Shown here one piece after another: positions 2 through 18,086 of a stretch of DNA of 64,000 nt. Numbering within the stretch: the first letter of the stretch is position 1; each line of letters starts with the position of its first letter. The stretch is taken from the NCBI GenBank assembly GCA_965217605.1, contig CBDCJB010000004.1, positions 8,015 through 72,014 on the forward strand, given 5' to 3'. Both the position numbers and the translations under genes were made by a program. Source of the stretch: Gammaproteobacteria bacterium (lineage in GTDB: Bacteria > Pseudomonadota > Gammaproteobacteria > Ga0077536). Under the pieces are notes generated by a model, which did not search any database, was not told the origin of the DNA, and was given only the letters and a program-made list of their open reading frames with translations.

Positions 2-2437
2 TTGCTCAGAGAACGCCAGTCCCGCGACGTTGCTGCGGCGCTTATAGTAGAGTACCTCTCGAGGAAGGGATCGGACGGCCAGCGCGCGATCGTCGACGCG
101 GGATTCAATGCGTTTCGCGAGGTGTTCTATTCGGTTTACGATCCGATGGAACGATGTCGGGTCCTGTGCTTGCTGTATGTGCTCGCAGAGAAGGGTCTGC
201 TCAGTGCATCAGACACGGTGCGGAGCGACTTGTCCATAGGGATCAAGGATTCTCTTTCGGAGCTTGAGCCGGGATGGGGACGAATTGACGCGGGCTTTCG
301 AGTTGGTCGTGCTATAGCTGACTGGCGTCCGAAAGCGGCAAAGCAATACCTATGTGACGCCGAAGCTGAGCGCAGGAGAAACGCACTCTCTTCGCTTACT
401 TCTGAGTGGACGTATCAAACATGTTTGCGCTTGGCAATTCGCGCATTCGCAGGCCAACTCGGCCAAGGGTACGATGCCCAGGACGACATGTCGCGACTGG
501 AGCATCTGATAGAGAGAATACCTGGGACGTCTCTTCGAAGCCAGCTCTGGGCTGAACTTGCGATGCGCCTATTTCTACGTGAACATTCCGACGATGGTAG
601 ACGAGTGATGGGCGAACACGTGGTGCCTCTGATAGAAACTAGGCGTGAAGGGCCGGCGAGAGTGCATAGTATCATTTCCGTCGCGCCGGCGCTATACCGA
701 AATCATAAGACCACTGCGCTTCGGCTATTTGACAGTCTCGAAGGATACGAAAAGGATGCAGCACTCATAGCATGTGCTGAATTCATAATGAAAAAGTGCA
801 TCCCTTCAGATCCATATGAGACTCACGAAGCAGGCTACCAAATCGCCTACGAGGACGCTGTCGATGTCGCCGAGTTGGCGAGTAATATCAGTCAGGACAA
901 TCTGGTATATTCCCTAATCGTGGCCCTCGGCGATACGCTCGCTCCGTCGTCACGGTTTCCTGACGGATTAACTGAACAGCAAAAATCGGACGTTGCGCAG
1001 ATGATAGAAGATTTGGTGGCCTGTAAGTTTCCCGATCAAGAGAACATACGACATGACGGTTACGTTGTCGCTAGCAACGCTCAGCTCTTGCGGATCAACA
1101 AGGGCAAGCGACAGTCCTGGATCCAGGTAGTAGACCGAGCTCGGACTATTCCGAACAGGTCTGATCGGGCTTTCGTGTTGGCTATAATCGGCCAAGTACT
1201 TCCGGCTCGGGAAGCCAGGCGTCGCGAGGACGTGTTTAGGGAGGCTATAAGTGTCGCCGAGACGATTCCGTGTACCTATGATCGACTCGCGCGGCTGAAT
1301 CATCTGGCGGGAAAGATGGCACTGAAATGCCCGGAGCTGGCGCGGAAATGCCTAACTAATGCGATCGCGGGAGTCCGTAATGCTGGTGACGGCGCAGATT
1401 CTGGTGTCGTGAGAGATGTCATAGACACTGCTTTCAAGATTGACCCGGACTTTGCTGGTTCACTTGTCTCGCTAACGGACGACGATCCGGCCCGTTCGGT
1501 GACTCGGCATGAGATGAAGCGTCGGCTGGATACACTGCGAGGGAAGAAGGCTATCATTGATGAAGTAGAGTCATGGGAGGAGTTCGATCGAGGGAATCGG
1601 GAAATGCCTCGCTCAGCTTGGTTGGCTCTTGGGTCACTGAACGCTAGGAGGGCTAAAGCGGTGGGTATGGAACAGCTGAGGCCGGCGCTTCGGGCTGCGG
1701 GTCAGTACCCGCTTCGCGATGGGTATCCGATACTGGCGTGGGTGATCGAGAACGCGGTGCGGTGGTTCTCGGGAACTCCTCAATCACGGTCAGCAATTCG
1801 GATACTCTTTGAGGGAGCGATGCATGCAACGGAACTTGCGGAGAGTGCCGGAAATAGCGCTTCGGTGGCAGTCCGGGAAGGCGCCTCAATGGCTAGTACT
1901 CGACGGAGCGAGGAGAGTTTGGTAGTACAGCCCGGTGACAAGGAGGGTGCTGTGGAGTTCGTGAGAAAGTGGTTCGAACGATCGGCTTCGGAGTACGTCC
2001 ACATCTGTGATCAGTACTTTAGTCCGGATGAACTTGATCTATTGATGTTGGTACAGTCGGTGAATGCAAGTCTCGAAGTCGTTGTTCTTACAAGCCGACA
2101 CTGTCAGCAACAGAATGGAATTGCGTCGCTGCGCGACGCATACCAGGGGGGATGGAAACATATTTCTGATCAGAAGCCACCGAGAGCGGAGATCGTTGTG
2201 GTCGGAGTGGAGGGGTCAGAAAAATCGCCGATTCATGATCGGATTATTCTGAGCAAACAAGGAGGGATTAGCCTTGGTACCTCGTGGAAGTCGGTTGGGG
2301 CTAAACAGGATTCGATCTTGCGGGTCCTGTCCGAGAGGGAAGCAGCCGAGCTGTCTGAACGCGTTCAGCTGTTTATTGTACAGAGAAGACGAGAGTATGG
2401 CGGCGGAAGATTGTCTTACGAAACGGTAACGCTGTAG
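2..2437 (+). CDS. large uncharacterized protein, 5'-partial (>811 aa); long alpha-helical repeat N-region plus C-terminal ~170-aa region with a PLD-like signature (YVHICDQYF ... IHDRIILSKQGGISLGTS)
   Basis: ORF runs continuously from the window edge. It ends 170 bp upstream of hsdM copy 1 on the same strand. The C-terminal HxR...G.S pattern resembles the phospholipase-D/nuclease HxK...GSxN motif, but this is an inference and not a confirmed fold. Confidence 0.5.
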   Translation: MLRERQSRDVAAALIVEYLSRKGSDGQRAIVDAGFNAFREVFYSVYDPMERCRVLCLLYVLAEKGLLSASDTVRSDLSIGIKDSLSELEPGWGRIDAGFRVGRAIADWRPKAAKQYLCDAEAERRRNALSSLTSEWTYQTCLRLAIRAFAGQLGQGYDAQDDMSRLEHLIERIPGTSLRSQLWAELAMRLFLREHSDDGRRVMGEHVVPLIETRREGPARVHSIISVAPALYRNHKTTALRLFDSLEGYEKDAALIACAEFIMKKCIPSDPYETHEAGYQIAYEDAVDVAELASNISQDNLVYSLIVALGDTLAPSSRFPDGLTEQQKSDVAQMIEDLVACKFPDQENIRHDGYVVASNAQLLRINKGKRQSWIQVVDRARTIPNRSDRAFVLAIIGQVLPAREARRREDVFREAISVAETIPCTYDRLARLNHLAGKMALKCPELARKCLTNAIAGVRNAGDGADSGVVRDVIDTAFKIDPDFAGSLVSLTDDDPARSVTRHEMKRRLDTLRGKKAIIDEVESWEEFDRGNREMPRSAWLALGSLNARRAKAVGMEQLRPALRAAGQYPLRDGYPILAWVIENAVRWFSGTPQSRSAIRILFEGAMHATELAESAGNSASVAVREGASMASTRRSEESLVVQPGDKEGAVEFVRKWFERSASEYVHICDQYFSPDELDLLMLVQSVNASLEVVVLTSRHCQQQNGIASLRDAYQGGWKHISDQKPPRAEIVVVGVEGSEKSPIHDRIILSKQGGISLGTSWKSVGAKQDSILRVLSEREAAELSERVQLFIVQRRREYGGGRLSYETVTL

Positions 2438-2608
2438 CGGAAGGGTGTTTGTGGTCGGGTCAGAGAGAAAGCCATCGTGGCGTGAAGACAGGTGGTACGC
2501 GCGGGCGGCAAAACGAGATCGACCTCACTACAAGTGGGAAGGGTGACGATTGCCCGCGATCGGCATGGCACCAGTTCGGAGAACCAAGACGTGGAAGGGC
2601 GGGAGAGG

Positions 2609-3715
2609 ATGAGCAACGGCGACCTGAACTGGATCGCGAACTACATCTGGGGCATCGCCGCCGACGTCCTGCGCGACCTCTACGTGCGCGGCAAGTACCG
2701 CGACGTGATCCTGCCCATGACCGTGCTGCGCCGCCTCGACGCGGTGCTGGAGGGCAGCAAGCAGGCGGTCCTCGACATGAAGGCCGCCCTCGATGACGCC
2801 GGCGTGGTCGAGCAGGACGCCGCCCTGCGCCAGGCGGCGGGGCAGGCGTTCTACAACACCTCCCGCTTCACCCTGAGCGACCTGCGCGCCCGCGCCAACC
2901 GCCAGCAGCTCACCGCCGACTTCCAAGCGTACCTCGACGGGTTCTCGCCGAACGTGCAGGACATCCTGGACAACTTCGAGTTCCGCAACCAGATCCAGCG
3001 CCTGTCCCGCGCCGACGCCCTGGGCACCCTGATCGAGAAGCTCACCTCGCCCGACATCAACCTGAGCCCCGCCCCGGTGCATCACGCCGACGGCTCGGTC
3101 AAGCATCCCGGCCTCGACAACCACGGCATGGGCACGATCTTCGAGGAGCTGGTGCGCCGCTTCAACAAGGAGAACAACGAGGAGGCGGGAGAGCACTGGA
3201 CCCCGCGTGACGCGGTCCGGCTGATGGCGAAGCTGGTCTTCCTGCCCATCGCCGACCGGATCAGCTCCGGCACCTATCTGCTGTACGACGGCGCCTGCGG
3301 CACCGGCGGCATGCTGACCGTGGCCGAGGAGACGCTGCGACAGCTCGCCGCCGAGCACGGCAAGGAGGTCGCCACCCACCTGTGCGGACAGGAGATCAAC
3401 GCCGAGACCTACGCCATCTGCAAGGCCGACCTGCTGCTGAAAGGCGAGGGCGAGGCCGCCGACAACATCGTGGGCGGCCCCGAGCACTTCACGCTGTCCA
3501 ACGACGCCTTCCCGTCGCGCGAGTTCGACTTTATGCTGTCCAATCCGCCCTACGGCAAGAGCTGGAAGACCGACCTGGAGCGCATGGGCGGCAAGCGCGA
3601 CATGCGCGACCCCCGTTTCGTGATCGAGCACGCCGGCGACCCCGAGTACTCCCTGGTGACCCGCTCCACCGATATCGTGACAGACGGTCCGAAGGAGGTT
3701 GAACATGACGAGTGA
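2609..3715 (+). pseudogene. hsdM: Type I restriction-modification methyltransferase HsdM, copy 1, 3'-truncated (HsdM_N domain, motif I DGACGTGG, motif IV NPPYGKSW, then ends after ...TRSTD)
   Basis: N-terminus MSNGDLNWIANYIWG...VLPMTVLRRLD is typical of the HsdM N-terminal domain. The gamma-class N6-adenine MTase motifs are present, but only ~55 aa follow NPPY, so the C-terminal part is missing. Confidence 0.8.
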
Positions 3716-3887
3716 CGAAGTAAAACGGTTCGATTGTGTCAGGACCATGAGAGCTATTCGCGACCAAATCAGCGCCGAGATTGCTGAAAAGAGCTTCGCC
3801 GAGCTGTCCCACTGGCTCGATACGCACGGTTACGCGGATCCTGCGCTGCAACGGTTGGCGGAGCGACGCGGCCAACGGAACCCATGA
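3705..3887 (+). CDS. small conserved protein (60 aa, MTSDEVKRFDCVRTMRAIRDQ...WLDTHGYADPALQRLAERRG); first gene of cassette A
   Basis: GGAGG RBS 6 nt upstream of the ATG. Its stop overlaps the ATPase start as ATGA. A homolog sits at the same relative position after hsdM copy 2. Confidence 0.5.
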   Translation: MTSDEVKRFDCVRTMRAIRDQISAEIAEKSFAELSHWLDTHGYADPALQRLAERRGQRNP

Positions 3888-5137
3888 TCACACGCGTCGA
3901 GGCGCTCAATTTCCGCTGTCTGCGGTACGTGCACCGTCCGATGAACCCGTTCCACGTATTGGTCGGCCCGAACGCATCCGGCAAGACGACGTTCCTGGAC
4001 GTCATCGGGCTCCTGGGTGACATCGTGTCAGGCGGGCTGGATTACGCCCTGTCCGAGCGCACACCCAACCCGCAGGATCTGCTGTTCGGACGCCGCGGCA
4101 GCCGACTCGAACTTGCGGTGGAGGCGACCGTGCCCGACGCCCTTCGCCAACCCGATGCGCAGCAGTGGAACACGGTTCGCTATCAGGTGGCGCTCGGTTA
4201 CGATGACACCGACCGCCAGTTTGAGTTCAAGGCTGAGACGCTGCTGTTGAAGAAGGCCACCGAATCCGGGCCGAGTCAGCGCGAATTGTTCCCGACGCCG
4301 CCGGTGCCGCCCGAGTCGCTGTTGGACAGCATCAAGCAGCGCGACAACAAGGTGTTGGTCAACAAGGCGTCGGGCGGCAACGACAACTTCTACAACGAGT
4401 CCAGCCCCGCAAACCGAAGTTGGGCGCCGTCGTTCAAACTCGGAACGCAGCGGTCGGCGCTGGGCAACCTTCCGGCCGACCAAAGCTCGTTTCCGACGGC
4501 GACGTGGTTTCGGGAGTACCTTGGCGCCGGCATTCAGCGGTTCACCCTCAACAGTGCCGCGATCCGGCAGCCGAGTCCGCCGACGCGGGCCGCCGGATTC
4601 CTGCCCGACGGGTCCAACGTCTCCTGGGTCGCCGGCCGCCTCCGGCAAGACGACCCCGCGCGCCACGCTGCGTGGATCGCGCATCTGCGCACGGCGCTGC
4701 CCGACCTGGAAGACATTGAGGCGGTGGAGCGGCCCGAAGACCGCCATTGTTATATGGTGTACCGGTATGTTGGCGGCTTGTCCGTGCCGTCCTGGCTGGT
4801 CTCCGATGGCACGCTCAGGTTGACCGGTCTCACGCTGCCGGCCTATCTGCCCGATCTGGAAGGTGTCTTCCTGGTTGAGGAGCCGGAAAACGGCATCCAC
4901 CCGAAGGCGGTGGCCACGGTGTTCGATTCGCTGTCCTCGGTGTATGGCGCTCAGGTGTTGATGGCGACCCACTCACCGGTCGTGCTCAACGCGGCGAATA
5001 CGGAAGACGTGCTGTGCTTCGCGCGCGACGATGCGGGTGCGACCGACGTCGTCTCTGGTACCGAACATCCTCACCTGCAAGCTTGGCGGGGCGATGCGGA
5101 CCTCGGCACCCTGCTTGCGGCCGGCGTACTGGGATGA
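3884..5137 (+). CDS. AAA_15/AAA_21-type ABC ATPase (OLD/RloA/AbiLi-like): Walker A GPNASGKTT, Walker B VFLVEEPENGIHP, H-loop ATHSP
   Basis: Motifs were read directly from the translation. The gene is translationally coupled to both neighbours through ATGA overlaps. Confidence 0.8.
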   Translation: MITRVEALNFRCLRYVHRPMNPFHVLVGPNASGKTTFLDVIGLLGDIVSGGLDYALSERTPNPQDLLFGRRGSRLELAVEATVPDALRQPDAQQWNTVRYQVALGYDDTDRQFEFKAETLLLKKATESGPSQRELFPTPPVPPESLLDSIKQRDNKVLVNKASGGNDNFYNESSPANRSWAPSFKLGTQRSALGNLPADQSSFPTATWFREYLGAGIQRFTLNSAAIRQPSPPTRAAGFLPDGSNVSWVAGRLRQDDPARHAAWIAHLRTALPDLEDIEAVERPEDRHCYMVYRYVGGLSVPSWLVSDGTLRLTGLTLPAYLPDLEGVFLVEEPENGIHPKAVATVFDSLSSVYGAQVLMATHSPVVLNAANTEDVLCFARDDAGATDVVSGTEHPHLQAWRGDADLGTLLAAGVLG

Positions 5138-5583
5138 CCCGCCGGGACCTCGTGGTCCTTGCCGCCGACAAGGACTTGGAACACGCGTTGCGCGGGTTGC
5201 TGTCCCGTCACGAGTCGCTGCCCATCCGGCAGATCGTGTTCGATATCTTCGTACACCCCGAGCATGACGCCGCTTGTGCGAGGCGTGGCGTTTCGTTCCT
5301 CTCCCCGCTTTCCCAGCGGTACCGATACGCACTGCTGATCATGGATCACGAAGGCAGTGGCCGCGAGAAGATATCAGCAGATGACTTGCAGGAAGCGCTG
5401 AATCAAGAATTTCGGGTATCCGCATGGGGCGAGCGGGGCAAGGCAATCGTCCTGGACCCGGAGCTGGAGATCTGGGTCTGGAGCGACTCCCCACACGTCG
5501 ACGCCGTGGCCGGTTGGGCAGATAGAAGGCCGCGGCTGCGCCAGTGGCTGAACGATCATGGTCTGTGGGATGACCAAGAGTAG
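5134..5583 (+). CDS. small partner protein of the AAA ATPase (149 aa), DUF4276/RloB-like
   Basis: Start overlaps the ATPase stop (ATGA). Its size and position match the two-gene ATPase + DUF4276/RloB modules found in R-M-linked and abortive-infection loci. The family assignment is from memory, not from a search. Confidence 0.5.
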   Translation: MTRRDLVVLAADKDLEHALRGLLSRHESLPIRQIVFDIFVHPEHDAACARRGVSFLSPLSQRYRYALLIMDHEGSGREKISADDLQEALNQEFRVSAWGERGKAIVLDPELEIWVWSDSPHVDAVAGWADRRPRLRQWLNDHGLWDDQE

Positions 5584-5721
5584 AAACCACGGCGGCCAAA
5601 GGAGGCGTTTCATGCCGCCCTGCATGCGTCGGGTGTGGCGCGCAGCGCATCGCTCTACCAACAGCTCGCCGAACGAGTATCCCTCAACCGGTGCGGCGAT
5701 CGTTCCTGAATCAGCGCCAAC

Positions 5722-6378
5722 ATGAGCAAAGGCGACCTCAACTGGATCGCGAACTACATCTGGGGCTTTGCCGACGATGTCCTCCGCGACCTCTACGTGC
5801 GCGGGAAGTACCGCGACGTGATCCTGCCCATGACCGTGCTGCGCCGCCTCGACGCGGTGCTGGAGGGCAGCAAGCAGGCGGTCCTGGACATGAAGGCCAC
5901 CCTCGACGACGCCGCCGTGGTCGAGCAGGACGCCGCCCTGCGCCAGGCGGCTGGGCAGGCGTTCTACAACACCTCCCGCTTCACCCTGAGCGACCTGCGA
6001 GCCCGCGCCAACCGCCAGCAGCTCACCGCCGACTTCCAGGCGTACCTCGACGGGTTCTTCCCCAACGTGCAGGACATCCTCGACAACTTCGAGTTCCGCA
6101 ACCAGATCCCGCGCCTGTCCCGTGCCGACGCCCTGGGCACCCTGATCGAGAAGCTCACCGCACCCGACATCAACCTGAGCCCCACCCCGGTGCACCCCGC
6201 CGAGGGCTCGGTCAAGCATCCCGGCCTCGACGACCACGGCATGGGGACGATCTTCGAGGAGCTGGTGCGCCGCTTCAACGAGGAGAACAACGAGGAGGCG
6301 GGCGAGCACTGCGCCCCGCGCGACGCGGTCCGACTGACTGATGCCAGTGACGTACCGGCTCCGATACGAGGGAGGTAG
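5722..6378 (+). pseudogene. hsdM: hsdM copy 2, truncated after ~205 aa (HsdM_N domain only)
   Basis: ~93% nucleotide identity to copy 1 from 15 bp upstream of the ATG. It diverges at ...EHCAPRDAVRL and then reads into the RBS of the next small gene. Confidence 0.8.
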
Positions 6379-6382
6379 GAAC

Positions 6383-6685
6383 ATGACGACCACGCGAGAG
6401 AAGAAAGGATTCGACTGCGTGAAGACCACGCGCGAGATTCGTGATGGCCTCAGTGTCGAGTTGGCCGGGATGTCCCCTGAGGACCGGATCCGGTGGCTCA
6501 ATAGCAGGGGTTTCTCGGACCCGCTCCTGCGCCGCCTCGTCAATCGGCTGCGGCCACAGGAAGGTCGAGAGGGCGAGTCCGCTCTGGTGCGCTCGACCGG
6601 CAGCCCCTTGCCCCGACGCGATTCCGTCCGCCGCCCGCCAGGAAGCGAACGATCACGACCACGGAGGACTGACGGCATATCGTGA
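6383..6685 (+). CDS. small protein homologous to 3705-3887 (MTTTREKKGFDCVKTTREIRDGLSVELAGMSPEDRIRWLNSRGFSDPLLRRL...), with a longer Arg/Pro-rich tail
   Basis: GGAGGGAGG RBS. ~40% aa identity to the cassette-A small protein over the first 60 aa (shared KxFDCVxTxRxIRD...WL...G..DP.L.RL pattern). Confidence 0.45.
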   Translation: MTTTREKKGFDCVKTTREIRDGLSVELAGMSPEDRIRWLNSRGFSDPLLRRLVNRLRPQEGREGESALVRSTGSPLPRRDSVRRPPGSERSRPRRTDGIS

Positions 6686-6719
6686 AGCCCGCAAGGAAGA
6701 CGAAGTGACAACTGCCAAC

Positions 6720-7040
6720 TCAATCCCTCTTCCACCAAGAAGCCAAGTCGTACTGGTTCTGCAGGTCCAGCCAGAAGCGAGGGCTGTTGCCAAAGTAACG
6801 GCCAAGCCGCAGCGCCGTGTCAGCGGTGATCGACCGGCGTCCGTTCAGGATGTCGGTGATGCGACCGGACGGAACGCCAAGGTCAAGTGCCAGTCTGTTG
6901 GCCCTCAGGCGGCGGGCTTCGAGCTCGCGCTTGAGCAATCGGCCAGGATGCGAAGTCGGATCCACTTTCGTAACCTCCCTACATACCACGAGGCCCGGTG
7001 AACACCGTAACCCATCAGCGGCAGGCAGCCGGTTGACCAA
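6720..7040 (-). CDS. higA: HigA-family (XRE-type HTH) antitoxin-like protein; TTG start in the ORF track, true start possibly at the internal VTKVD
   Basis: ...HPGRLLKRELEARRLRANRLALDLGVPSGRITDILNGRRSITADTALRLGRYFGNSPRFWLDLQNQYDL matches the HigA antidote signature. No intact HigB partner upstream. Confidence 0.7.
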   Translation of the reverse strand: MVNRLPAADGLRCSPGLVVCREVTKVDPTSHPGRLLKRELEARRLRANRLALDLGVPSGRITDILNGRRSITADTALRLGRYFGNSPRFWLDLQNQYDLASWWKRD

Positions 7041-7176
7041 CCAGCCAGCCGCCCCCGCCGGTCGTAGAAGATGGCAGGTTGAAACGAACTACGCGGCGTG
7101 TGCGTGTGCACGGACGGGCCGCAGCCGCGGTTGCTGTCGGTCCGCGGTCTGGACACGGGGGCGGCCACCGAATTGA

Positions 7177-8037
7177 ATGAGCGCCAACATGAGCAACGGC
7201 GACCTGAACTGGATCGCGAACTACATCTGGGGCATCGCCGACGACGTCCTGCGCGATCTGTACGTGCGCGGCAAGTACCGCGACGTGATCCTGCCCATGA
7301 CCGTGCTGCGCCGCCTCGACGCGGTGCTGGAGGGCAGCAAGCAGGCCGTCCTCGACATGAAGGCCACCCTCGACGATGCCGGCGTGGTCGAGCAGGACCC
7401 CGCCCTGCGCCAGGCGGCGGGACAGGCGTTCTATAACATCTCCGGATTCACCCTCCGCGACCTGCGCGCCCGCGCCAACCGCCAGCAGCTCACTGCCGAC
7501 TTCCAGGCATACCTCGACGGGTTCTCGCCCAACGTGCAGGACATCCTCGAAAACTTCGAGTTCCGCAACCAGATCCCGCGCCTGTCCCGCGCTGACGCCC
7601 TGGGCACCCTGATCGAGAAGCTCACCTCGCCGGACATCAACCTGAGCCCCGCCCCGGTGCACCACGCCGACGGCTCGGTCAAGCATCCCGGCCTCGACAA
7701 CCACGGCATGGGCACGATCTTCGAGGAGCTGGTGCGCCGCTTCAACGAGGAGAACAACGAGGAGGCGGGCGAGCACTGGACGCCGCGCGACGCCGTCCGG
7801 CTGATGGCGAAGCTGGTCTTCCTGCCGATCGCCGACCAGGTCAGGTCCGGCACCTACCTGCTGTACGACGGCGCCTGCGGCACCGGCGGCATGCTGACCG
7901 TGGCCGAGGAGACCCTGCGGCAGCTCGCCCGCGAGCACGGCAAGGAGGTCGCCACCCACCTGTACGGCCAGGACATCAACGCCGAGAGCGCGGCCACCAT
8001 CTGTTGGAGCTGTACGATGGGCTTGAAGCGACGATAA
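7177..8037 (+). pseudogene. hsdM: hsdM copy 3, truncated after ~265 aa (HsdM_N + motif I), then unrelated sequence
   Basis: ~95% aa identity to copy 1 up to ...HLYGQDINAES (~7985), then divergence and a stop. Confidence 0.8.
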
Positions 8038-8384: not shown

Positions 8385-9686
8385 TCAGTCTCGATCGGGG
8401 CAGTCACGGTAGAAGTTCATGAGAGGTTCAAAGAGGTCCAACGTACGGGTGGACAGATACATGAACTGCAGTTCACGACTGTCTAGATCGACGTTACCAC
8501 GGGGCACGTGAAAAACGGACTTGCGAAGAGACTTGAGCGCTGCAAAATCGGGCTCGGACTCTATGAAAGCATCCAGTGCCGGGATTCGCAACGACGGCGC
8601 CTTTTTCATGGCCTGCTTATACAGCCTCAGCGGCTCATGTAACAATGCGAGGGTCACGCCCAGCAACGCTTGTTGGTTGTGATGCTCCTGTTCCGTTTTT
8701 GGAATGGTGTCGGCACGAAAGAACTGTTCGATATCGATTGACGTATCCTTGGATGGATCAACAGGACAGGCAAGTAACTTCTCAGGATCAATGTAGGAAG
8801 TGAATTCGTTATAGAATGCCAGTGCGCGCATGATCATCTGGACGCAACCCCGTTTTGCTTGTCTTATGCTGTCCGGGTAAAGCGTTCCGCGTCGACCGGA
8901 GTCGTTTGTTGCTGATGATTGTGAGGACCGTATTGGCTCCAGCGCGAAGAATTGAATTTGACTGGGGTTGCCGCGCAGATCCGAGGGATTGGGCCAGTGC
9001 GGCAATGGTCGATGGCAAATCCCTTTGGCGATTCGGTTGAGCTTCTCGATTCGACTGAAGCGTCTTGACTCCAGAGCCCTGCTAGCGATTTCCTTATCGC
9101 CTTCGGTAATGAAGTACGAGCCCATCGAATACCAGAATCTGACAGTATGGGCATCTATCAGGAATTGTGCGTCGAAAATCAGTTTTGTCAGGGCTTCGCG
9201 CTGTCGGTCCTCAGAAGAAAAGATTCCGTCGAGAGCGTCCTGGAATGAAGTGCGGTTTTGGGGGTGAAGTACGCTATCTCTCAACTCTCGCAAGTGCGCC
9301 AAGAAATCCTTGTTGCAGTTCAAGAAATCGGCCAGGGGTGCGTATCTGAAGTTGGAATTCCGCTTAACCAATCTCCTGTATGCCTCCAGTTCTTCGTGCA
9401 GCAGACACAGGTAGACGTCCAAGAGGCTGTCGATGAATATGCGGTGCATGTCGCGGCAGATGCCGGTGAGGTCCGCTTCTATGACTGACCTCGAATGTGT
9501 GGTGTATTTTTGACTGAACAGACCGACCGCTCCGGGGTCGATGATGGAGTTCGAGTCAGTCTCTTCCGAACTTCCCAGGTTGCGCAGGACGGCGTGGCGG
9601 ACGCCTTCGAGGACAAGGCATCGATGGTAGTGGATGTTGCAGCAGTGGTGCACTGCAATGGTTTCGGATTTCTTGTCGACGGGCAT
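8385..9686 (-). CDS. hypothetical protein (433 aa), lower GC. An overlapping upstream ORF (9556-10056) in another frame may be a 5' extension across a frameshift
   Basis: Long ORF with protein-like composition. I recognise no domain. Confidence 0.5.
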   Translation of the reverse strand: MPVDKKSETIAVHHCCNIHYHRCLVLEGVRHAVLRNLGSSEETDSNSIIDPGAVGLFSQKYTTHSRSVIEADLTGICRDMHRIFIDSLLDVYLCLLHEELEAYRRLVKRNSNFRYAPLADFLNCNKDFLAHLRELRDSVLHPQNRTSFQDALDGIFSSEDRQREALTKLIFDAQFLIDAHTVRFWYSMGSYFITEGDKEIASRALESRRFSRIEKLNRIAKGICHRPLPHWPNPSDLRGNPSQIQFFALEPIRSSQSSATNDSGRRGTLYPDSIRQAKRGCVQMIMRALAFYNEFTSYIDPEKLLACPVDPSKDTSIDIEQFFRADTIPKTEQEHHNQQALLGVTLALLHEPLRLYKQAMKKAPSLRIPALDAFIESEPDFAALKSLRKSVFHVPRGNVDLDSRELQFMYLSTRTLDLFEPLMNFYRDCPDRD

Positions 9687-10221: not shown

Positions 10222-11841
10222 CTAGCCCGGATATTTCATAAAAAAAGAGGGCAAGCCCTTTCTAATCCGTTATAATTCAGTTAGTTAGGCTGAAAACGGA
10301 AAGGACTCGCCCGTGACAGAATGTACCCAGACTGCGCTGCAATTTCCAGGCTTTTCTCGCCGCAAGATCGACGTCTCATTCAACGGCGGTGACATCACTT
10401 CCAACGGTGGGGTGCAGTTGCTGCGCTGGGCCGATGAACGGACCGGGTTGATCAAGGCCGCGGCACGGGCCATTGGGGATTCGCGCCGGAGAAAGAGCTG
10501 CACCCACGCTCTGGAGTCGCTGGTCCGACAGCGGGTCTATGGCCTTTCCCTGGGCTATGAGGACCTCAACGACCACGAGGCATTGCGCGCGGACTTGGCT
10601 CTGCAGACGGCGCTTTCCCGGGATGAGTCGCTGGCGAGCCCGTCGACGTTGTGCCGACTGGAGAACCGCGCGAACCGGAACACCGCGGTGGCCCTGCACA
10701 AGGGACTCATTGATAACTTTATCGCCGCTTACAAACAAGCGCCCCGACGACTGATACGCGATGTGGATGCCACCGACGATCGGGTGCAGGGTGATCAAGC
10801 GGGCCGCTTCTTCCACGGCGACTACGACCACGACTGCTGTCTGCCCTTGTACGTGTTCTGTGGCGATCAACGGTTGGTCAGTTATCTGCGTTCGAGCAAG
10901 ATCGACGGCGCAAAACACAGTGGGGCGATCTTGGCGCTGTTGATCAAACGGTTGCGCCAGGCGTGGCCGAAGGTCGAGATCCTGGTGCGCGCCGATGCCG
11001 GCTTTTGCCGCTGGCGGATGCTGCGCTGGTTCGATCGCCACGGCGTGGATTACGTCATGGGTATCGCGAAAAACCCGCGTTTGCACGATCAATCGTTAGC
11101 GTTGCGCACGTTGGCTCAGTGGCGGTATTGGATGATGGGTGAGAAGCAGCGCCTGTTCAGCGAGGTCCGTTACGCCGCACCGACTTGGGATACCCCGCGA
11201 CGGGTGATCGTCAAGGCCGAGCACAGCGCCCGCGGCAGCAATCCCCGCTTCGTGGTGACCCACCTCACCGGCAAGGCCCAACGCATCTACGACCGCCTCT
11301 ACTGCGCCCGCGGCGAGATGGAGAACCGGATCAAGGAGCAGCAGTTGGGCCTGTTTGCCGATCGCACCAGTTGCCACACCTGGTGGGCCAATCAGTTCCG
11401 GCTGTTGCTCTCAAGCTTGGCTTACACGCTGTTGGAGACGATCCGCCGGGTGGCACTACACGCAACGGCACGGGCTCGCGCGCAAGGCGGCACGCTGCGC
11501 CTGAAACTATTACGCATCGGCGCCATCGTCTTGCGCAATACCAGGCGCATCCGACTGTTGCTCTCCAGTGCTTACCCCCATCGAGAACTGTTCTGCCTGG
11601 TGGCCGCTCGCCTCAAGCCGGGATAGTCGTCCCAACGCCAGTCGCCTCGTGTGCGATTCCTTGTGAGTCGGGGTGTCGCTCGCCTCCGAAACGACTCGTG
11701 CATCGCAATCGGCGATAAATCCACCGGTGGCGCGCCGAAACGTCGCGCTCAAGCGCCGCTTCGTGCCACCACCAACGAATTCCGACCCATGATCGACCAA
11801 CTCCACGCACAATCTCACTGCTCATGCAATATCCGGGCTAG
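10222..11841 (+). mobile_element. IS1380/IS4-superfamily-like insertion sequence, copy A (1612-bp core flanked by CTAG on both sides; termini CCCGGATATT(T/G)CAT)
   Basis: Identical to copies at 16467-18086 and 48237-49808. All three are flanked by CTAG, so a 4-bp CTAG target duplication. It interrupts the IS256 tnp ORF in frame (GV|LGPLVK). Confidence 0.85.
10313..11626 (+). CDS. DDE transposase (437 aa) of the IS1380-like element
   Basis: GTG start. The C-terminal YCARGEMENRIKEQQLGLFADRTSCHTWWANQFRLLLSSLAYTL block is typical of IS4-superfamily (IS1380/IS701-like) transposases. Confidence 0.85.
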   Translation: MTECTQTALQFPGFSRRKIDVSFNGGDITSNGGVQLLRWADERTGLIKAAARAIGDSRRRKSCTHALESLVRQRVYGLSLGYEDLNDHEALRADLALQTALSRDESLASPSTLCRLENRANRNTAVALHKGLIDNFIAAYKQAPRRLIRDVDATDDRVQGDQAGRFFHGDYDHDCCLPLYVFCGDQRLVSYLRSSKIDGAKHSGAILALLIKRLRQAWPKVEILVRADAGFCRWRMLRWFDRHGVDYVMGIAKNPRLHDQSLALRTLAQWRYWMMGEKQRLFSEVRYAAPTWDTPRRVIVKAEHSARGSNPRFVVTHLTGKAQRIYDRLYCARGEMENRIKEQQLGLFADRTSCHTWWANQFRLLLSSLAYTLLETIRRVALHATARARAQGGTLRLKLLRIGAIVLRNTRRIRLLLSSAYPHRELFCLVAARLKPG

Positions 11842-11849
11842 GCCCGCTG

Positions 11850-12131
11850 GTGAAGCAGTTGACGGAGGCAGCGCTGGAGGCAGCGCTCGATTCGCACCGG
11901 GTCGAAGAACTCGCCGAGAACCGCAAGAACGGTAAATCGAAGAAGACCGTGAAAAGCACCAGCGGCGAGTTCGAGCTTGAGACGCCGCGGGATGGTGCTG
12001 GCACGTTCGAGCCGCAGCTGGTGAAAAAACACCAGCGCACGGTCTCCGATGAGATCGAGAGCAAGATTCTGTCGATGTACGGACTTGGGATGAGCTACGC
12101 CGACATTGCCGGGCACGTTGAGGAGATGTAG
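11850..12131 (+). pseudogene. IS256-family transposase fragment (continuation after the IS insertion)
   Basis: KQLTEAALEAALDSH...NGKSKKTVKSTSGEFELETPRDGAGTFEPQLVKKHQRTVSDEIESKILSMYGLGMSYADIAGHVEEM is the conserved IS256 tnp N-domain. Confidence 0.75.
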
Positions 12132-12308
12132 GGGATCAGCGTCTCGATGGCGGCGATCTCAACGATCACCGACAAACTGATCGACGCGGTTAAAGCCTGG
12201 CTGTGAATCCCGGAGACAAAATGGTCAGTGGAACCGGTCGGATAATCTGACCATCGCGGAGTAAAAGTCCGCATCTTAGGCCCGAGGCGAACGAGCTGAG
12301 GGCGGGAG

Positions 12309-13801
12309 ATGTATTCTGTGGATTTATACAGCCGGGTGCGGCGTGCGTGCCATGTTGAAGGGATGAGCAAGAGCGCGGCGGCGCGCCAGTTTGGGATCGA
12401 TCGCAAGACAGTCGCGAAGATGCTGGAGCACGCGGTTGCGCCTGGATACCGCCGGACGGGCCCTCCGGTGCGGCCCAAGCTTGACCCGTTCATTCCGATC
12501 ATCGACCAGATCCTCGAAGAGGACAAAGGCCGGCTGAAGAAGCAACGGCACACCGCGAAGCGGATCTTCGAGCGCCTGCGGGACGAACACGGCTTCACCG
12601 GTGGGGTCACGTCACGGATTACGTACGTGTGAAGAAGCGCCAGATCGGGAGGTCTTCGTGCCGCTGACGCACGCGCCGGGCCATGCCCAGGTGGACTTCG
12701 GCGAGGCGCTTGGTGTGATCGGCGGCGTGCAGCGCAAGCTGCACTATGTTGCGATGGTAGTGCCGCAGTCGGATGCCTTCTTCATCAAAGCGTATCCTGC
12801 CGAGACGGCCGAAGCTTTCTGCGACGGGCATGTCTCGGCGGTTGCGTTTTTTGGCGGTGTGCCGCTATCGGTACTCTACGACAACACCACCATCGCGGTT
12901 GCGAAGATCCTTGGCGACGGTACTCGCAAGCGCACCAGCGTTTTTTCCGAGTTGCAGTCGCACGACCTGTTCGAGGATCGGTTCGGCCGGCCGGGCAAGG
13001 GCAACGACAAGGGGTCGGTGGAGGGGGTGATCGGCTTTGCCCGGCGGAACTTCCTGGTCCCGATGCCCCGCTTCGAGAGCTTCGAGGCGCTGAATGCTTG
13101 GCTGGAGGTACAGTGCCTCAAGCGCCAGAGCGAGGTGCTGCGCGGGCACAGCGAGATGATCGGCGAACGCTTACTGCACGACCTGGATGCCCTGATGGCG
13201 TTACCAGCCGTCTGCTACGACGCTTGCGAGAGAGTCAGCACCCGGGCCACGTCGATCTCGATGGTGCGCGACCGCGGCAGCGACGACTCGGTGCCAGTCG
13301 CCTACGCCCATCACGAGGTTCAGGTTCGAGGCTATGTCGACAAGGTCGTCATCGGCTGCGGAGCTGAGGTGGTCGCGCGGCACCGCCGATCCTACGAGAA
13401 GGCTGACATGGTCTTCGATCCTATGCACTTCCTGCCGCTCCTGGAGCAGAAGGTCGGCGCACTCGACGGCCTGGCCGTTGCAGGGCTGGGCGTTGCCCGG
13501 GGAGTTCGCCACGCTGCGCCGGTTGCTCGAGGCGCGGATGGATAAGCGGGGCAAACGCGAATACGTTCAGGTGCTTCGGCTTCTCGAGACCTTCGAAATG
13601 GACCCTGTCCAAGGCGCCGTCAGGCCGGCGCTCGATCGCGGTGCGATCGGCTACGACGCAGTCAAACACCTGGTGCTGTGCCGGGTTGAGCGGCGCCCGC
13701 CGCGGCTCGATCTCGACATCTATCCCGACCTGCCCCGAGCAAGAGTAGAAACCACGAAGCCGGCCAGCTACATGAGCCTGATGCCGGGAGCGGCGGTATG
13801 A
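12309..13801 (+). pseudogene. istA: IS21 transposase IstA, at least two frameshifts (segments 12309-12632, 12601-13545, 13334-13801)
   Basis: HTH N-terminus, DDE core and C-terminus appear in three different frames. Confidence 0.8.
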
Positions 13802-14550
13802 GTGACACACCACAAGTGCTGCTGCACCACCACCTCAAGAAGCTCCGCCTGCCCACCTTCCACAGCGAATACGCCAAACTTGCCCGGCCATGTGCGGCCG
13901 AGGGCAACGATCACGTGCAGTATCTTCTCCGGCTCTGCGAACTGGAGCTGATCGAGCGCGAGCGGCGGATGGTCGAACGGCGCATTAAAGCCGCGAAGTT
14001 CCCGGCAACAAAGAGCCTGGATAGCTTCGACTTCAAGGCCATCCCGTCGCTCAACAAGGCACTGACGATGGAACTGGCCCGCTGCGAGTTCGTCAATCGG
14101 CGTGAGAACGTCATCGCCCTGGGCCCGAGCGGCACCGGCAAGACCCACGTTGCCCTCGGCCTGGGACTGGCAGCCTGCCAGAAGGGTCTGAAGGTCTGCT
14201 TCACAATCGCGGCTGCACTTGTGCACGAACTGATCGAAGCCGCAGACGCGCGCCGCCTGCAGCGCCTTCACAAGCAGCTTGCCAGCCAGGATCTGCTCAT
14301 CATCGATGAACTCGGCTTCGTACCTCTGTCAAAGACGGGGGCCGAACTGCTCTTCGAGATCATCTCCCAGAGCTACGAACGCGGCTCGATCATCATCACG
14401 TCCAACCTGCCGTTCGACGAATGGACCGAGGTCTTCGGATCGGAACGCCTCACAGGCGCCATTCTCGACCGCCTGACACACCACGTACACATCCTCGAAA
14501 TGAACGGCGAGAGCTTCCGGATGCGCCAAAGCCGCAAGACCAGAACCTGA
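13798..14550 (+). CDS. istB: IS21 helper ATPase IstB (Walker A GPSGTGKTH)
   Basis: Full-length, canonical IstB sequence. Start overlaps the istA end. Confidence 0.9.
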   Translation: MSDTPQVLLHHHLKKLRLPTFHSEYAKLARPCAAEGNDHVQYLLRLCELELIERERRMVERRIKAAKFPATKSLDSFDFKAIPSLNKALTMELARCEFVNRRENVIALGPSGTGKTHVALGLGLAACQKGLKVCFTIAAALVHELIEAADARRLQRLHKQLASQDLLIIDELGFVPLSKTGAELLFEIISQSYERGSIIITSNLPFDEWTEVFGSERLTGAILDRLTHHVHILEMNGESFRMRQSRKTRT

Positions 14551-14936: not shown

Positions 14937-16304
14937 TCAAAGATTGCTGGCTTCGCGGAGTTTGCGCATGATCCGGTCTTCGACCCATTGGCTGCTCCAC
15001 CAATCGATCGGTGTGACAGCCGTGCCATGCAAGAGCATCGTGAAGTGTAGGTGATCGCCTCCCGCCAAGCCCGTCGCACCGCTTCGCCCGAGTTGTTGGC
15101 CCATCTCGCTCATCGCGCCGACTCCGACGTTGATAGATGATAAGTGTGCGTAAAGCGACTGCAGGCCCATGCCATGATCGAGAATCACGCTGTTACCGTA
15201 AATGCCGAGCCAGCCGGAATGGACGACGCGGCCGCTGTTCGCGGCAAGCACGGGCGCCGCAGCCGTTGAAGCGAGGTCAAAACCCAAGTGTGTTTGGTGA
15301 TCGACGACCTCACCTTCATATACATAGTCGCGCTGATCGGCAAAGCCTGATTCGACAGCCGTGTTGATGAGCTGCTTGAAGGCTCCCTGCCAGAGGATCT
15401 CGGGCGCTGTCTTGGCACTCTGGCTCGCAATATACGCATCGTTTTCACGACGCATATCGCTGTTGATCGCGACATAGGACGCCAGCAGATTGGATGGGTC
15501 GTCAACAAAGAAGTCCGGCGAATTCTGCAGGATGGCCGGCACGACGCGCGACATAAAGCTATCATTTAAGTTGATGCGGTTTTCCCGAAACCGCTTTGGA
15601 AAGACACGTTGATCAAAAGTTGCACTGCCTTCGTTGCTGAGAGAATCGCGCGCGAAGACGCTGATGGGCGTGTTGAGATCCTGATCCCAGGAGAGTGCGT
15701 AAAACGCAACATGCAATGATGAATCGGCATTCTCGATACCTGCGCCAGCGGCCGGGAAACCCGGATACTCACGCTCACCTACGCGCACGCCCGAGATAGA
15801 ATCGGCCGGTGTTACACGATAAACGACGAGTTCGGAACCGCCGTGATTAATGTAGTGAAATTGTGATTGCACGCCGATGGCCGGCGGGCGCAAACGAACT
15901 TCAATCTCCAGCTCGGATTTGGTCACGGCCTTGCGATAGCCAAATAATACGGGCCGGACGGCTGTGACGGCGACACTTGCCGCACCCTCACTGAGCATTT
16001 CGAACCGCTGCCGACCGATGGGTTGCCTGAGAACCAAACGATCCTCACCTTCACGCGCGAGCCCAGAGACATCACCGGGCCCAAGATTGAATACTTGCAG
16101 CGTCTCGCCATCCTGTTCGAGCGTCACATCAAGCCTGTTGAGCTCGCCACCCGGCGTATCGATCGTCATGACGAGTTCACCGATTTGGCCGATGGCCACT
16201 GGCTCTATGAATTCGATGGTGGGACCCGGCGCGCTCCCGGCCCTGAACCAAGCCGCGCCAGCGCCCGCGGCCATTAAGAGCAGTAGCGCAAAGTATTTTC
16301 TCAT
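14937..16304 (-). CDS. M23 family metallopeptidase (murein endopeptidase-like) with N-terminal signal peptide
   Basis: Signal peptide MRKYFALLLLMAAGAGAAW. C-terminal HLGFDLA...GIYGNSVILDHGMGLQSLYAHLS...GATGLAGGDHLHF carries the M23 HxxxD/HxH motifs. Confidence 0.85.
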   Translation of the reverse strand: MRKYFALLLLMAAGAGAAWFRAGSAPGPTIEFIEPVAIGQIGELVMTIDTPGGELNRLDVTLEQDGETLQVFNLGPGDVSGLAREGEDRLVLRQPIGRQRFEMLSEGAASVAVTAVRPVLFGYRKAVTKSELEIEVRLRPPAIGVQSQFHYINHGGSELVVYRVTPADSISGVRVGEREYPGFPAAGAGIENADSSLHVAFYALSWDQDLNTPISVFARDSLSNEGSATFDQRVFPKRFRENRINLNDSFMSRVVPAILQNSPDFFVDDPSNLLASYVAINSDMRRENDAYIASQSAKTAPEILWQGAFKQLINTAVESGFADQRDYVYEGEVVDHQTHLGFDLASTAAAPVLAANSGRVVHSGWLGIYGNSVILDHGMGLQSLYAHLSSINVGVGAMSEMGQQLGRSGATGLAGGDHLHFTMLLHGTAVTPIDWWSSQWVEDRIMRKLREASNL

Positions 16305-16466: not shown

Positions 16467-18086
16467 CTAGCCCGGATATTTCATAAAAAAAGAGGGCAAG
16501 CCCTTTCTAATCCGTTATAATTCAGTTAGTTAGGCTGAAAACGGAAAGGACTCGCCCGTGACAGAATGTACCCAGACTGCGCTGCAATTTCCAGGCTTTT
16601 CTCGCCGCAAGATCGACGTCTCATTCAACGGCGGTGACATCACTTCCAACGGTGGGGTGCAGTTGCTGCGCTGGGCCGATGAACGGACCGGGTTGATCAA
16701 GGCCGCGGCACGGGCCATTGGGGATTCGCGCCGGAGAAAGAGCTGCACCCACGCTCTGGAGTCGCTGGTCCGACAGCGGGTCTATGGCCTTTCCCTGGGC
16801 TATGAGGACCTCAACGACCACGAGGCATTGCGCGCGGACTTGGCTCTGCAGACGGCGCTTTCCCGGGATGCGTCGCTGGCGAGCCCGTCGACGTTGTGCC
16901 GACTGGAGAACCGCGCGAACCGGAACACCGCGGTGGCCCTGCACAAGGGACTCATTGATAACTTTATCGCCGCTTACAAACAAGCGCCCCGACGACTGAT
17001 ACGCGATGTGGATGCCACCGACGATCGGGTGCAGGGTGATCAAGCGGGCCGCTTCTTCCACGGCGACTACGACCACGACTGCTGTCTGCCCTTGTACGTG
17101 TTCTGTGGCGATCAACGGTTGGTCAGTTATCTGCGTTCGAGCAAGATCGACGGCGCAAAACACAGTGGGGCGATCTTGGCGCTGTTGATCAAACGGTTGC
17201 GCCAGGCGTGGCCGAAGGTCGAGATCCTGGTGCGCGCCGATGCCGGCTTTTGCCGCTGGCGGATGCTGCGCTGGTTCGATCGCCACGGCGTGGATTACGT
17301 CATGGGTATCGCGAAAAACCCGCGTTTGCACGATCAATCGTTAGCGTTGCGCACGTTGGCTCAGTGGCGGTATTGGATGATGGGTGAGAAGCAGCGCCTG
17401 TTCAGCGAGGTCCGTTACGCCGCACCGACTTGGGATACCCCGCGACGGGTGATCGTCAAGGCCGAGCACAGCGCCCGCGGCAGCAATCCCCGCTTCGTGG
17501 TGACCCACCTCACCGGCAAGGCCCAACGCATCTACGACCGCCTCTACTGCGCCCGCGGCGAGATGGAGAACCGGATCAAGGAGCAGCAGTTGGGCCTGTT
17601 TGCCGATCGCACCAGTTGCCACACCTGGTGGGCCAATCAGTTCCGGCTGTTGCTCTCAAGCTTGGCTTACACGCTGTTGGAGACGATCCGCCGGGTGGCA
17701 CTACACGCAACGGCACGGGCTCGCGCGCAAGGCGGCACGCTGCGCCTGAAACTATTACGCATCGGCGCCATCGTCTTGCGCAATACCAGGCGCATCCGAC
17801 TGTTGCTCTCCAGTGCTTACCCCCATCGAGAACTGTTCTGCCTGGTGGCCGCTCGCCTCAAGCCGGGATAGTCGTCCCAACGCCAGTCGCCTCGTGTGCG
17901 ATTCCTTGTGAGTCGGGGTGTCGCTCGCCTCCGAAACGACTCGTGCATCGCAATCGGCGATAAATCCACCGGTGGCGCGCCGAAACGTCGTGCTCAAGCG
18001 CCGCTTCGTGCCACCACCAACGAATTCCGACCCATGATCGACCAACTCCATGCACAATCTCACTGCTCATGCAATATCCGGGCTAG
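16467..18086 (+). mobile_element. IS1380-like IS, copy B (identical length to copy A, CTAG flanks)
   Basis: Sequence identity with 10222-11841 through both termini. Confidence 0.85.
16558..17871 (+). CDS. DDE transposase of IS1380-like copy B (437 aa)
   Basis: Near-identical to 10313-11626. Confidence 0.85.
   Translation: MTECTQTALQFPGFSRRKIDVSFNGGDITSNGGVQLLRWADERTGLIKAAARAIGDSRRRKSCTHALESLVRQRVYGLSLGYEDLNDHEALRADLALQTALSRDASLASPSTLCRLENRANRNTAVALHKGLIDNFIAAYKQAPRRLIRDVDATDDRVQGDQAGRFFHGDYDHDCCLPLYVFCGDQRLVSYLRSSKIDGAKHSGAILALLIKRLRQAWPKVEILVRADAGFCRWRMLRWFDRHGVDYVMGIAKNPRLHDQSLALRTLAQWRYWMMGEKQRLFSEVRYAAPTWDTPRRVIVKAEHSARGSNPRFVVTHLTGKAQRIYDRLYCARGEMENRIKEQQLGLFADRTSCHTWWANQFRLLLSSLAYTLLETIRRVALHATARARAQGGTLRLKLLRIGAIVLRNTRRIRLLLSSAYPHRELFCLVAARLKPG

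Follow-up and report, generated by a model that had tools for sequence, protein, structure and literature searches.

The stretch analysed here (hereafter the window) comprises 64,000 nucleotides from a member of the Gammaproteobacteria (GTDB lineage Ga0077536; assembly GCA_965217605.1, contig CBDCJB010000004.1, positions 8,015 to 72,014), and its left end is occupied by an 811-codon open reading frame (ORF; 2..2437, + strand) whose 5' end, according to the ORF list and its translation, is open at the edge of the window. An earlier reading of the letters alone (the sequence-only reading) had described this frame as an 811-amino-acid (aa) repeat protein standing directly upstream of an array of hsdM genes. 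The ORF list and the homologues agree on the 811 codons at 2-2437; the chain that they encode is only the C-terminal half of a protein of 1,643 aa. We recovered the full-length counterpart, P0012, from a 594-kb NCBI contig that encodes it, and the window ORF corresponds to P0012 residues 833-1643 with 811/811 residues identical, barring an artefactual first codon (L here, scored M), so that the window begins at residue 833. The entire gene is also present, at 99.1% nucleotide identity, on a contig of a near-identical strain (L045). Judged by its length, which is far beyond chance, and by the agreement of its homologues, the 811-codon ORF is coding. With its N-terminus recovered, as the sequence-only reading had suggested, the protein is a single-chain STAND (NLR-like) NTPase that consists of a nucleotide-binding oligomerisation domain (NOD), an alpha-solenoid of ~1,250 aa, and one C-terminal domain of the phospholipase D (PLD) fold. 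The N-terminal STAND ATPase lay outside the view of that reading, and it redefines the protein as NLR-like. The window holds the following parts of the gene, with conservation given as counts among 158 family representatives:

2..2437, + strand: 3' portion (811 codons plus stop) of the 1,643-aa STAND-solenoid-PLD gene, the 5' half of which lies left of the window
2..1897, + strand: alpha-solenoid (HEAT/TPR-like), residues 1-632, candidate sensor or scaffold (AlphaFold2 model, Foldseek, hhalign)
1907..2434, + strand: PLD-superfamily-fold domain, residues 636-811 (P0012 1468-1643), candidate effector (AlphaFold2, Foldseek, PssA profile match)
2003..2020, + strand: ICDQYF strand with the conserved acidic D670 (P0012 D1502), D in 156/158, aligned with IEDPYI of MITD1
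2087..2095, + strand: LTS motif, residues 696-698, T697 in 148/158 and S698 in 150/158, aligned with LLTS of MITD1
2234..2242, + strand: H745-D746-R747 (P0012 H1577-D1578-R1579), positional equivalent of HxK, H in 158/158, D in 152/158, R in 158/158
2276..2293, + strand: GTSWKS, residues 759-764, equivalent of G-x-S-x-N, G759 in 157/158 and S761 in 158/158, aligned with GaSlN of PssA

The N-terminus of P0012, left of the window, carries the Walker A (GQEGSGKTT) and Walker B (YYFVLDGLTD) motifs of a STAND-type P-loop NOD, and residues G60, K61, T62, D143, and G144 are invariant in 12/12 diverse family members. The same 12 members matched STAND-type Pfam models, which included AAA_22 (11/12), AAA_16 (9/12), NACHT (8/12), NPHP3_N (7/12), nSTAND5 (5/12), and NB-ARC (3/12), with scores that were modest overall (e.g., 35.9 bits for AAA_16 at a cut-off of 32.6). 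Profile matches of the N-terminus in the PDB were to MalT, Avs4, an NB-ARC protein, and NAIP5; all were marginal and dominated by the P-loop, and the N-terminal 420 aa searched as a single sequence gave no informative match in the PDB.

The long alpha-helical repeat region that the sequence-only reading had noticed was correctly recognised, because modelled helices, solenoid matches, and weak internal repeats all point to it. Modelling of the 811 residues in AlphaFold2, with 54 family sequences as input, gave a pLDDT (predicted local distance difference test) of 91.1 and a pTM (predicted template modelling score) of 0.77; the model places ~30 helices over residues 1-632 and an alpha/beta domain over residues 636-811. 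Foldseek matched the helical part to generic TPR/HEAT/ARM solenoids (Ctr9, APC/C subunits, TTC7B, VPS35, and importins), and hhalign of 120-residue family segments detected weak internal repeats (best pair among 171 comparisons: probability 90%, E=1.9e-6). Invariant polar residues within the solenoid were D299, H351, G353, D388, and D495. We also noted that a motif, P-x-R-x-D-R-x-x-h-L-x-x-I-[AG], recurs along the solenoid (window residues 375-399 and P0012 residues 451-475; examples are IPNRSDRAFVLAIIG and CPLREDRIHLLGVIA) and is reminiscent of HEAT-like repeats; D388, which is invariant family-wide, lies within one copy of it.

The ~170-aa C-terminal module of the sequence-only reading is present, with a size nearer ~176 aa, and it is predicted to have the alpha/beta fold of the PLD superfamily. 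A separate AlphaFold2 model of residues 630-811 (pLDDT 89, pTM 0.85) had as its best PDB match in Foldseek the nuclease NucT (6ehi; E=6e-6, TM-score 0.56-0.65). Other matches were the DUF1669 domain of FAM83B (E=8.7e-6), a Streptomyces PLD, the C-terminal domain of TrmBL2, SauUSI, and phosphatidylserine synthases, as well as MITD1 (2ymb, E=2.7e-3), PPK1, and BfiI; Foldseek probabilities were 1.00 for NucT, Streptomyces PLD, SauUSI, and PssA, and 0.97-0.99 for MITD1 and BfiI. The earlier concern that the C-terminus might prove to have a non-nuclease fold is thus answered in part: the fold is that of the PLD superfamily, but this fold also has non-catalytic members. With regard to sequence, the family profile had a sole match among PDB sequences, to E. 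coli PssA, which was marginal (E=0.011) and extended over both halves of that enzyme. The alignment of hidden Markov models (HMMs) places PiHdRw on vlHfKg and GtSfN on GaSlN, and the spacing of H1, R3, G15, S17, and position 19 (K here; N in the family profile) is that of the first HKD motif of PssA; the family thus keeps the spacing of a genuine HKD motif. Neither the 811 aa nor six C-terminal domains had a match in direct scans of Pfam and PADLOC, and a PDB sequence search with the single window protein was likewise empty. In NCBIfam, the only match was sub-threshold and local: residues 644-769 aligned with the VPA1262 N-terminal-domain model at its positions 320-453 (30.6 bits where the cut-off is 80; E=1.5e-7). 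Each chain appears to hold one PLD unit, with a single matched stretch in nearly all of the hits listed and two stretches in two of the listed proteins. The second half-site for which the sequence-only reading had proposed to look was not found in the chain, the remainder of the AlphaFold2 model being helical, and no other candidate effector domain was found in the chain among Pfam matches or in the model.

Both motifs that the sequence-only reading had quoted, YVHICDQYF (residue 665) and IHDRIILSKQGGISLGTSWKS (residue 744), are present in the ORF; that reading had likened the spacing to the signature HxK(x)4D(x)6GSxN with R substituting K. The likeness holds for part of the signature: H, R, G, and S fall at the spacing of the PssA HKD motif, with the family H over H and R over K, but the HKD aspartate is absent, its position (residue 752) being variable across the representatives, and the N is K in the window copy. 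Position 763 is N in 121/158 representatives (77%) and K in 20/158 (13%), the window copy included, so that the stricter pattern HxK(x)4D(x)6G(S/T)xN is kept in H, G, and S, while K is invariantly R, D is variable, and N reaches 77%. The R is not a substitution in this copy. Since H and R are invariant in 158/158 representatives, H-D-R is a signature of the family rather than a K-to-R change peculiar to the window gene. The invariant H-D-R/S/D constellation sits at the positions of PLD catalytic residues.

The same motif set, with a conserved acidic residue that follows strand 2 and an HDR motif that precedes strand 5, is described in PMC12065111 (2025) for Menshen NsnC (its PB-PLD1 effector domain), for MITD1 (its MIT_C domain), and for the C-termini of some BrxL proteins. 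Both elements of this MIT_C/PB-PLD1 signature occur in our family (D670 in 156/158, H745 in 158/158, D746 in 152/158, and R747 in 158/158), and in the MITD1 sequence taken from PDB 2ymb the motifs IEDPYI, LLTS, IHDR, and G..G are colinear with ICDQYF, VLTS, IHDR, and GISLG. Comparison with MITD1 by hhalign gave weak statistics (E=0.038, and E=0.016 at a probability of 2.8% against a MITD1 profile, which is not significant); the MIT_C profile was too shallow for significance because the MITD1 homologues were only vertebrate orthologues at ≥76% identity. Pfam MIT_C (PF16565) gave no match at E≤10. The PADLOC model of NsnC matched two family members below threshold (3.7e-7 and 2.9e-4) and gave no match to the window protein itself, and positions 320-475 of the VPA1262 N-terminal model matched the PLD-fold domain of relatives, also below threshold, down to 4.7e-12. 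The motif set is of the MIT_C/PB-PLD1 type, whose MITD1 is, to our knowledge, a non-catalytic membrane binder, and for this reason "nuclease" is used below only as a prediction.

Relatives numbered only 11 in a word-indexed search, and several of these were split or truncated. A profile of the last 180 residues, used in an exhaustive HMM search, gave 1,107 clusters at 50% identity with E≤1e-3, of which 334 reached E≤1e-30. The majority of full-length matches were 1,610-1,670 aa long and had the domain at the extreme C-terminus, and 71 full-length representatives aligned end to end with a median identity to P0012 of ~30% and roughly even conservation. Scanning genomes with two conserved motifs gave 29 loci, 17 of them with intact ORFs of ~1,530-1,790 codons (15/17 within 1,623-1,679). 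The 29 loci were distributed patchily across phyla (Acidobacteriota, Chloroflexota, Bacillota, Armatimonadota, Planctomycetota, Bacteroidota, and Desulfobacterota), with further members in Gammaproteobacteria and in an archaeal metagenome-assembled genome (MAG). Full-length members also occur on five plasmids, where their annotation is "hypothetical" or "ATP-binding protein", and a full-length copy was present on three IMG/VR (viral-classified) contigs; a tblastn search of a phage GenBank collection gave no match to the family. The family is unnamed, its source annotations being only hypothetical or ATP-binding, and no mention of five of its RefSeq accessions was found in searchable papers. 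It may be included in a 2026 survey of 589 STAND clades (PMC13581612). Two side observations concern unusual copies. A Chloroflexia MAG (CAVWGW01) holds two paralogues, of which L012 is intact (1,651 codons) and L021 has a matching ORF of 394 codons that is not cut by a contig end and is apparently truncated or disrupted. In a 40%-identical lineage (L004 8255-12510; also L005 and L006), the protein comes in two pieces (533 + 600 aa) that stop short of the PLD domain; directly downstream lie an MNT/HepT pair and a DUF4258/DUF2283 pair, both toxin-antitoxin-like, with the same layout in three JGI samples.

Close relatives (54-67% identity: L001, L002, L003, L007, L037, and L038) were found in varied neighbourhoods. 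The L002 relative adjoins two GmrSD_N genes, that of L003 follows a type IIG-like methyltransferase gene and has a DDE transposase inserted within it, that of L001 is interrupted by an insertion sequence (IS) and has a CfrBI restriction-modification (R-M) pair 5.4 kb off, and that of L007 showed no notable neighbours. The gene is broken in L001 (7024-13777) and L003 (7276-13102), with an IS between the ATPase part and the rest, and consists of adjacent split ORFs in L002 (10001-14934) and L007 (3880-8832); such splits may stem from indel errors in long-read assemblies of 2-11x depth, but the IS insertions look real. All-against-all BLAST of the 103 neighbours of 17 loci gave no recurrent partner gene. 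The most frequent Pfam families among these neighbours were phage integrase (5), ResIII (3), N6_Mtase, HsdM_N, and Methylase_S (2 each), YhcG nuclease (2), and single matches to McrB_N, IstB, and Transposase_31, next to ordinary metabolic genes. Type I R-M was represented by two HsdM and two HsdS (L023, L032), and by an HsdR-like gene in L014; no linkage to hsdM, hsdS, or hsdR was seen at L001, L002, L007, L037, L038, or on the plasmids, and the window hsdM fragment gave no BLAST match to hsdM genes beside other family members. The hsdM link that the sequence-only reading had proposed to check in other genomes was therefore not borne out, with type I R-M adjacent in only ~2-3/17 other loci and the local hsdM copies truncated.

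Beside the three plasmid copies examined lie IS elements, integrases, or genes for a Fic or a TIR-domain protein. On the Bacillus cereus plasmid plas2 (L044 3723-7126), genes for an 805-aa ATP-binding protein and a TIR-domain protein lie directly upstream of WP_000105744.1 and may be another defence pair. By a conservative count, a known defence gene lies within 5 kb at 6/29 distinct loci, against a background of 1.53% taken from PMC13581612 (binomial P ~5e-6); the calls are based on Pfam domains rather than complete systems and the sample is small, so the estimate is rough. The family is accessory and mobile, and lies near defence and mobile genes above chance.

At the window locus, the gene stands in an array of hsdM remnants with the following features (strand where assigned; GC denotes the fraction of guanine plus cytosine):

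2438..2609: gap of 172 bp between the gene and hsdM stump 1, the ATG of the hsdM fragment being at 2610
2610..3715, + strand: truncated hsdM copy 1 (Pfam HsdM_N plus the first half of N6_Mtase; PADLOC MTase_I positions 4-316 of 661)
3884..5137: MAD3 ATPase, intact (NF047739, 488 bits against a cut-off of 420)
5014..5583: MAD4, truncated, overlapping MAD3 (profile positions 1-150 of 206; 138 bits against a cut-off of 160)
5722..6378 and 7177..8037: two further hsdM 5' fragments
8385..9686, - strand: ORF of 433 aa with ATG start, in a stretch of GC 0.54 beside hsdM stumps of GC 0.67
10313..11626 and 16558..17871: transposases of two IS1380 copies in direct orientation, identical over at least 300 nt
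12601..14550: IS21 fragment, between the IS1380 copies
14937..16304, - strand: M23 peptidase gene, between the IS1380 copies

The co-orientation with hsdM copy 1 and the ~170-bp spacing given by the sequence-only reading were accurate (172 bp). Neither a sigma-70-like promoter nor a terminator was called in the 172-bp gap, and transcription may therefore read through from the gene into hsdM stump 1. Identity among the hsdM copies is 93-95%, and each breaks off at a position of its own (+616 bp, +799 bp, and at least +1,106 bp). Left of the window, L045 shows a fourth hsdM 5' stump, ~304-338 bp long and sharing 94% identity with copy 1, preceded by a ribbon-helix-helix gene and a transposase, and the STAND-PLD gene starts 190 bp after it; by blastn of L045 against the window, homology to this upstream stump (copy 0) begins at 2579. 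Because the fourth direct stump precedes the gene, the latter is bracketed like a cassette in the array. Its GC is 0.543 (0.55 at third codon positions, GC3), against 0.67 in the hsdM stumps (GC3 0.67-0.95). The STAND-PLD gene is thus the cargo of a cassette bracketed by hsdM 5' stumps and not a working partner of hsdM: as the stumps are truncated, bracket the gene, and differ from it in GC (0.67 vs 0.54), the adjacency reflects island or cassette organisation rather than functional pairing.

The four direct hsdM 5' copies span window 2579-8037 plus L045 3766-4146, and the cargo after the stumps comprises, in turn, the STAND-PLD gene, MAD3 with the partial MAD4, an unassigned stretch at 6378-7177, and a low-GC stretch, likewise unassigned. 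The array resembles the outcome of successive cassette insertions or replacements at a hotspot anchored in hsdM, and it may also be a mis-assembly of population variants. MAD3 and the partial MAD4 look like a decayed or partial MADS-like module, with no MAD5-8 among the ORFs scanned up to ~20 kb of the window. The 433-aa ORF may be another cargo gene of the array; it had no match in Pfam, PADLOC, NCBIfam, or PDB sequences. Further along, window 10222-17871 has a composite-transposon-like layout, and a small ORF at 18679-19170 (- strand) has a weak GIY-YIG/group I intron endonuclease-like match (Pfam E=5.7e-5).

Taken with the family data, the analysis leads us to favour, at somewhat better than even odds, the reading that the STAND-solenoid-PLD protein is a stand-alone immune sensor-effector, carried here as hsdM-cassette cargo, in which oligomerisation would pair the PLD domains into a phosphodiesterase that cuts nucleic acid. 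The solenoid would bind a trigger, and nucleotide-dependent oligomerisation of the NOD would then bring the single-copy PLD domains into pairs. Paired domains would complete a two-histidine active site, as in the dimers of Nuc, NucT, and BfiI, and the resulting phosphodiesterase would cut nucleic acid (most likely DNA) and so abort infection. A stand-alone role of the family against phages or other mobile elements is probable. The sequence-only reading had spoken of an uncharacterised defence effector, of which the helical sensor-like region, the candidate effector, and the mobility of the family stand as observations, and catalysis and the defence role as predictions.

Several points weigh against this proposed immune nuclease. 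The constant length, fixed architecture, and even conservation of the family are unlike the effector and sensor shuffling of Avs and bNACHT proteins, and on the long contigs L037 and L038 the gene sits amid housekeeping genes (hrcA-grpE-dnaJ, hem genes, metK, and mfd) with no defence gene within 8 kb. PADLOC 2.0.0 has no model for the family and NCBIfam no family-specific model, and the neighbourhood enrichment is subject to the roughness noted above. MITD1, the only structurally characterised member of the MIT_C/PB-PLD1 subgroup, has, to the best of our knowledge, a membrane-binding, non-catalytic MIT_C domain, and we know of no HDR-type PLD-like domain with demonstrated catalysis or nuclease activity. 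Finally, the motif itself departs from the HKD pattern: it lacks the aspartate, has R in place of K, and in the window copy has K in place of N.

In an alternative that we regard as unlikely, though likelier than the other rivals, the protein is the same immune or conflict STAND-solenoid protein and its PLD-fold domain would act, once activated, as a non-catalytic membrane-binding, scaffold, or dimerisation module, modelled on MITD1 MIT_C, FAM83 DUF1669, or the TrmBL2 C-terminal domain; such a module might target membranes or recruit a factor. The motif set colinear with MITD1 (IEDPYI/LLTS/IHDR/G..G) is what it would lead one to expect, as are the non-catalytic proteins among the Foldseek matches (FAM83B at E=8.7e-6, TrmBL2, and MITD1) and the relaxed positions, i.e., an HKD aspartate that is not kept and K at the N position in 13% of members, the window copy included. 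However, H745, R747, and S761 are 100% invariant and D670 99% among relatives of ~30% identity, which exceeds the usual need of a scaffold, and the invariant residues occupy the catalytic H, K, and S positions of PLD enzymes. The top fold match is moreover a nuclease (NucT), and the chain has no alternative effector domain.

Catalysis directed at phospholipids, in the manner of PssA, cardiolipin synthase, or PLD, with membrane damage or remodelling once the STAND module is triggered, is in our view improbable. PssA is the sole sequence-level PDB match (E=0.011, both halves), Streptomyces PLD and PssA are among the Foldseek matches, and MIT_C binds membranes; but the PssA match is marginal and the closest folds also include the nucleases NucT, SauUSI, and BfiI. 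No transmembrane or amphipathic segment was noticed in the AlphaFold2 model, in an analysis that was not aimed at such segments.

We give a similarly low probability to a non-immune, MalT-like STAND switch that would govern a housekeeping phosphodiesterase through a conserved cellular ligand. Such a switch would agree with the MalT-like module order and AAA_16 matches, with the fixed architecture, even conservation, and invariant polar solenoid residues, and with the housekeeping neighbourhoods of L037 and L038. Against it stand the patchy distribution over phyla, the plasmid and viral-classified copies, the IS-disrupted copies, and the two paralogues in one MAG, together with the enrichment of integrase, IS, and R-M genes among neighbours and a gene GC that is atypical for its surroundings in the window. 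A functional part in the adjacent hsdM/MADS-like system (e.g., as its missing nuclease) is largely refuted and very improbable. In its favour, the gene precedes hsdM in the same orientation, across a 172-bp gap in which no terminator was called, MAD3 and the partial MAD4 follow 1.4 kb downstream, and type I R-M genes adjoin the family member at L023 and L032, as does an HsdR-like gene at L014. Against it, the protein matches no MAD model, MAD1 is described as a regulator-like accessory gene, all local hsdM copies are truncated, GC is 0.54 in the gene against 0.67 in hsdM, no partner recurs across 17 loci, and most homologues have no hsdM nearby.

The protein can be compared with several known systems. 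Like Avs/AVAST and bNACHT proteins, it is a single large protein with a STAND P-loop NOD, long helical sensor-type repeats, and one output domain, and it is accessory, horizontally mobile, and found near defence genes. Avs proteins are usually effector-first, whereas here the NTPase is at the extreme N-terminus and the candidate effector, an HDR-type PLD-fold domain, at the C-terminus; family architecture is fixed, with no effector swapping of the Avs/bNACHT kind seen, and among the NCBIfam models of Avs1-5 only Avs1b responded, with 13.6 bits against a cut-off of 1,500, which places the protein outside these families. The order of N-terminal NOD, helical sensor, and C-terminal output is that of MalT, together with the AAA_16 matches and a marginal profile match (8bob, E=0.031) that includes the segment before Walker A. 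MalT differs in its LuxR-type DNA-binding output and its length of ~900 aa, against a PLD-fold output and 1,643 aa here.

The likeness to MITD1 MIT_C and NsnC PB-PLD1 lies in the PLD fold and in the motifs, which follow the MITD1 order (the acidic residue in [I/V]xDPY[F/I], LTS, and H-D-R); the domain here is fused to a STAND ATPase and not to an MIT or inPIN domain. With Nuc/NucT, BfiI, and the SauUSI nuclease domain, which are the best fold matches, the protein shares one half-site per chain, and in these enzymes the half-site is completed by dimerisation. It differs from single-HKD nucleases in having H-D-R rather than H-x-K and no HKD aspartate, and its catalysis is only predicted. VPA1262 proteins have been renamed Juno, and T4, lambda-vir, and two BASEL phages plaque >100-fold less on E. 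coli carrying them, in a report that gives no domain description (bioRxiv 10.64898/2026.08.01.741415). Our PLD-fold domain has a local HMM match to positions ~320-475 of the VPA1262 N-terminal model, and Juno is likewise a single-gene system of mobile islands. Nonetheless, the protein is not a Juno member (10.6 bits against 325 for NF040699 and 30.6 against 80 for NF040700), Juno is ~1,026 aa long, and the remainder of the two proteins is unrelated. An identity with MAD1, described as regulator-like and accessory, was rejected, there being no match to a MAD model in PADLOC or NCBIfam. Nor does the protein belong to MADS, since it has no MAD match and MAD3/MAD4' adjoin it only here, without recurrence among the 17 loci.

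A broader proposal, which we hold tentatively and place clearly below even odds, is that the family forms an unrecognised class of NLR-like receptors with MalT-like order, whose HDR-type (MIT_C-like) PLD-fold effector would gain phosphodiesterase activity through the pairing of two copies in the STAND oligomer and not before. A common catalytic mechanism would then be expected for the HDR-type PLD domains found in Menshen NsnC, in some BrxL proteins, and in Juno, and the eukaryotic MITD1 MIT_C would be the descendant of a bacterial immune effector. Prokaryotic NLR-like receptors would gain a widespread family (>1,100 clusters, many phyla, plasmids) with an unusual C-terminal output. The family would also offer a tractable single-gene system in which to ask whether HDR-type PLD-like domains, including those of Menshen NsnC, BrxL variants, the Juno region, and human MITD1, are enzymes.

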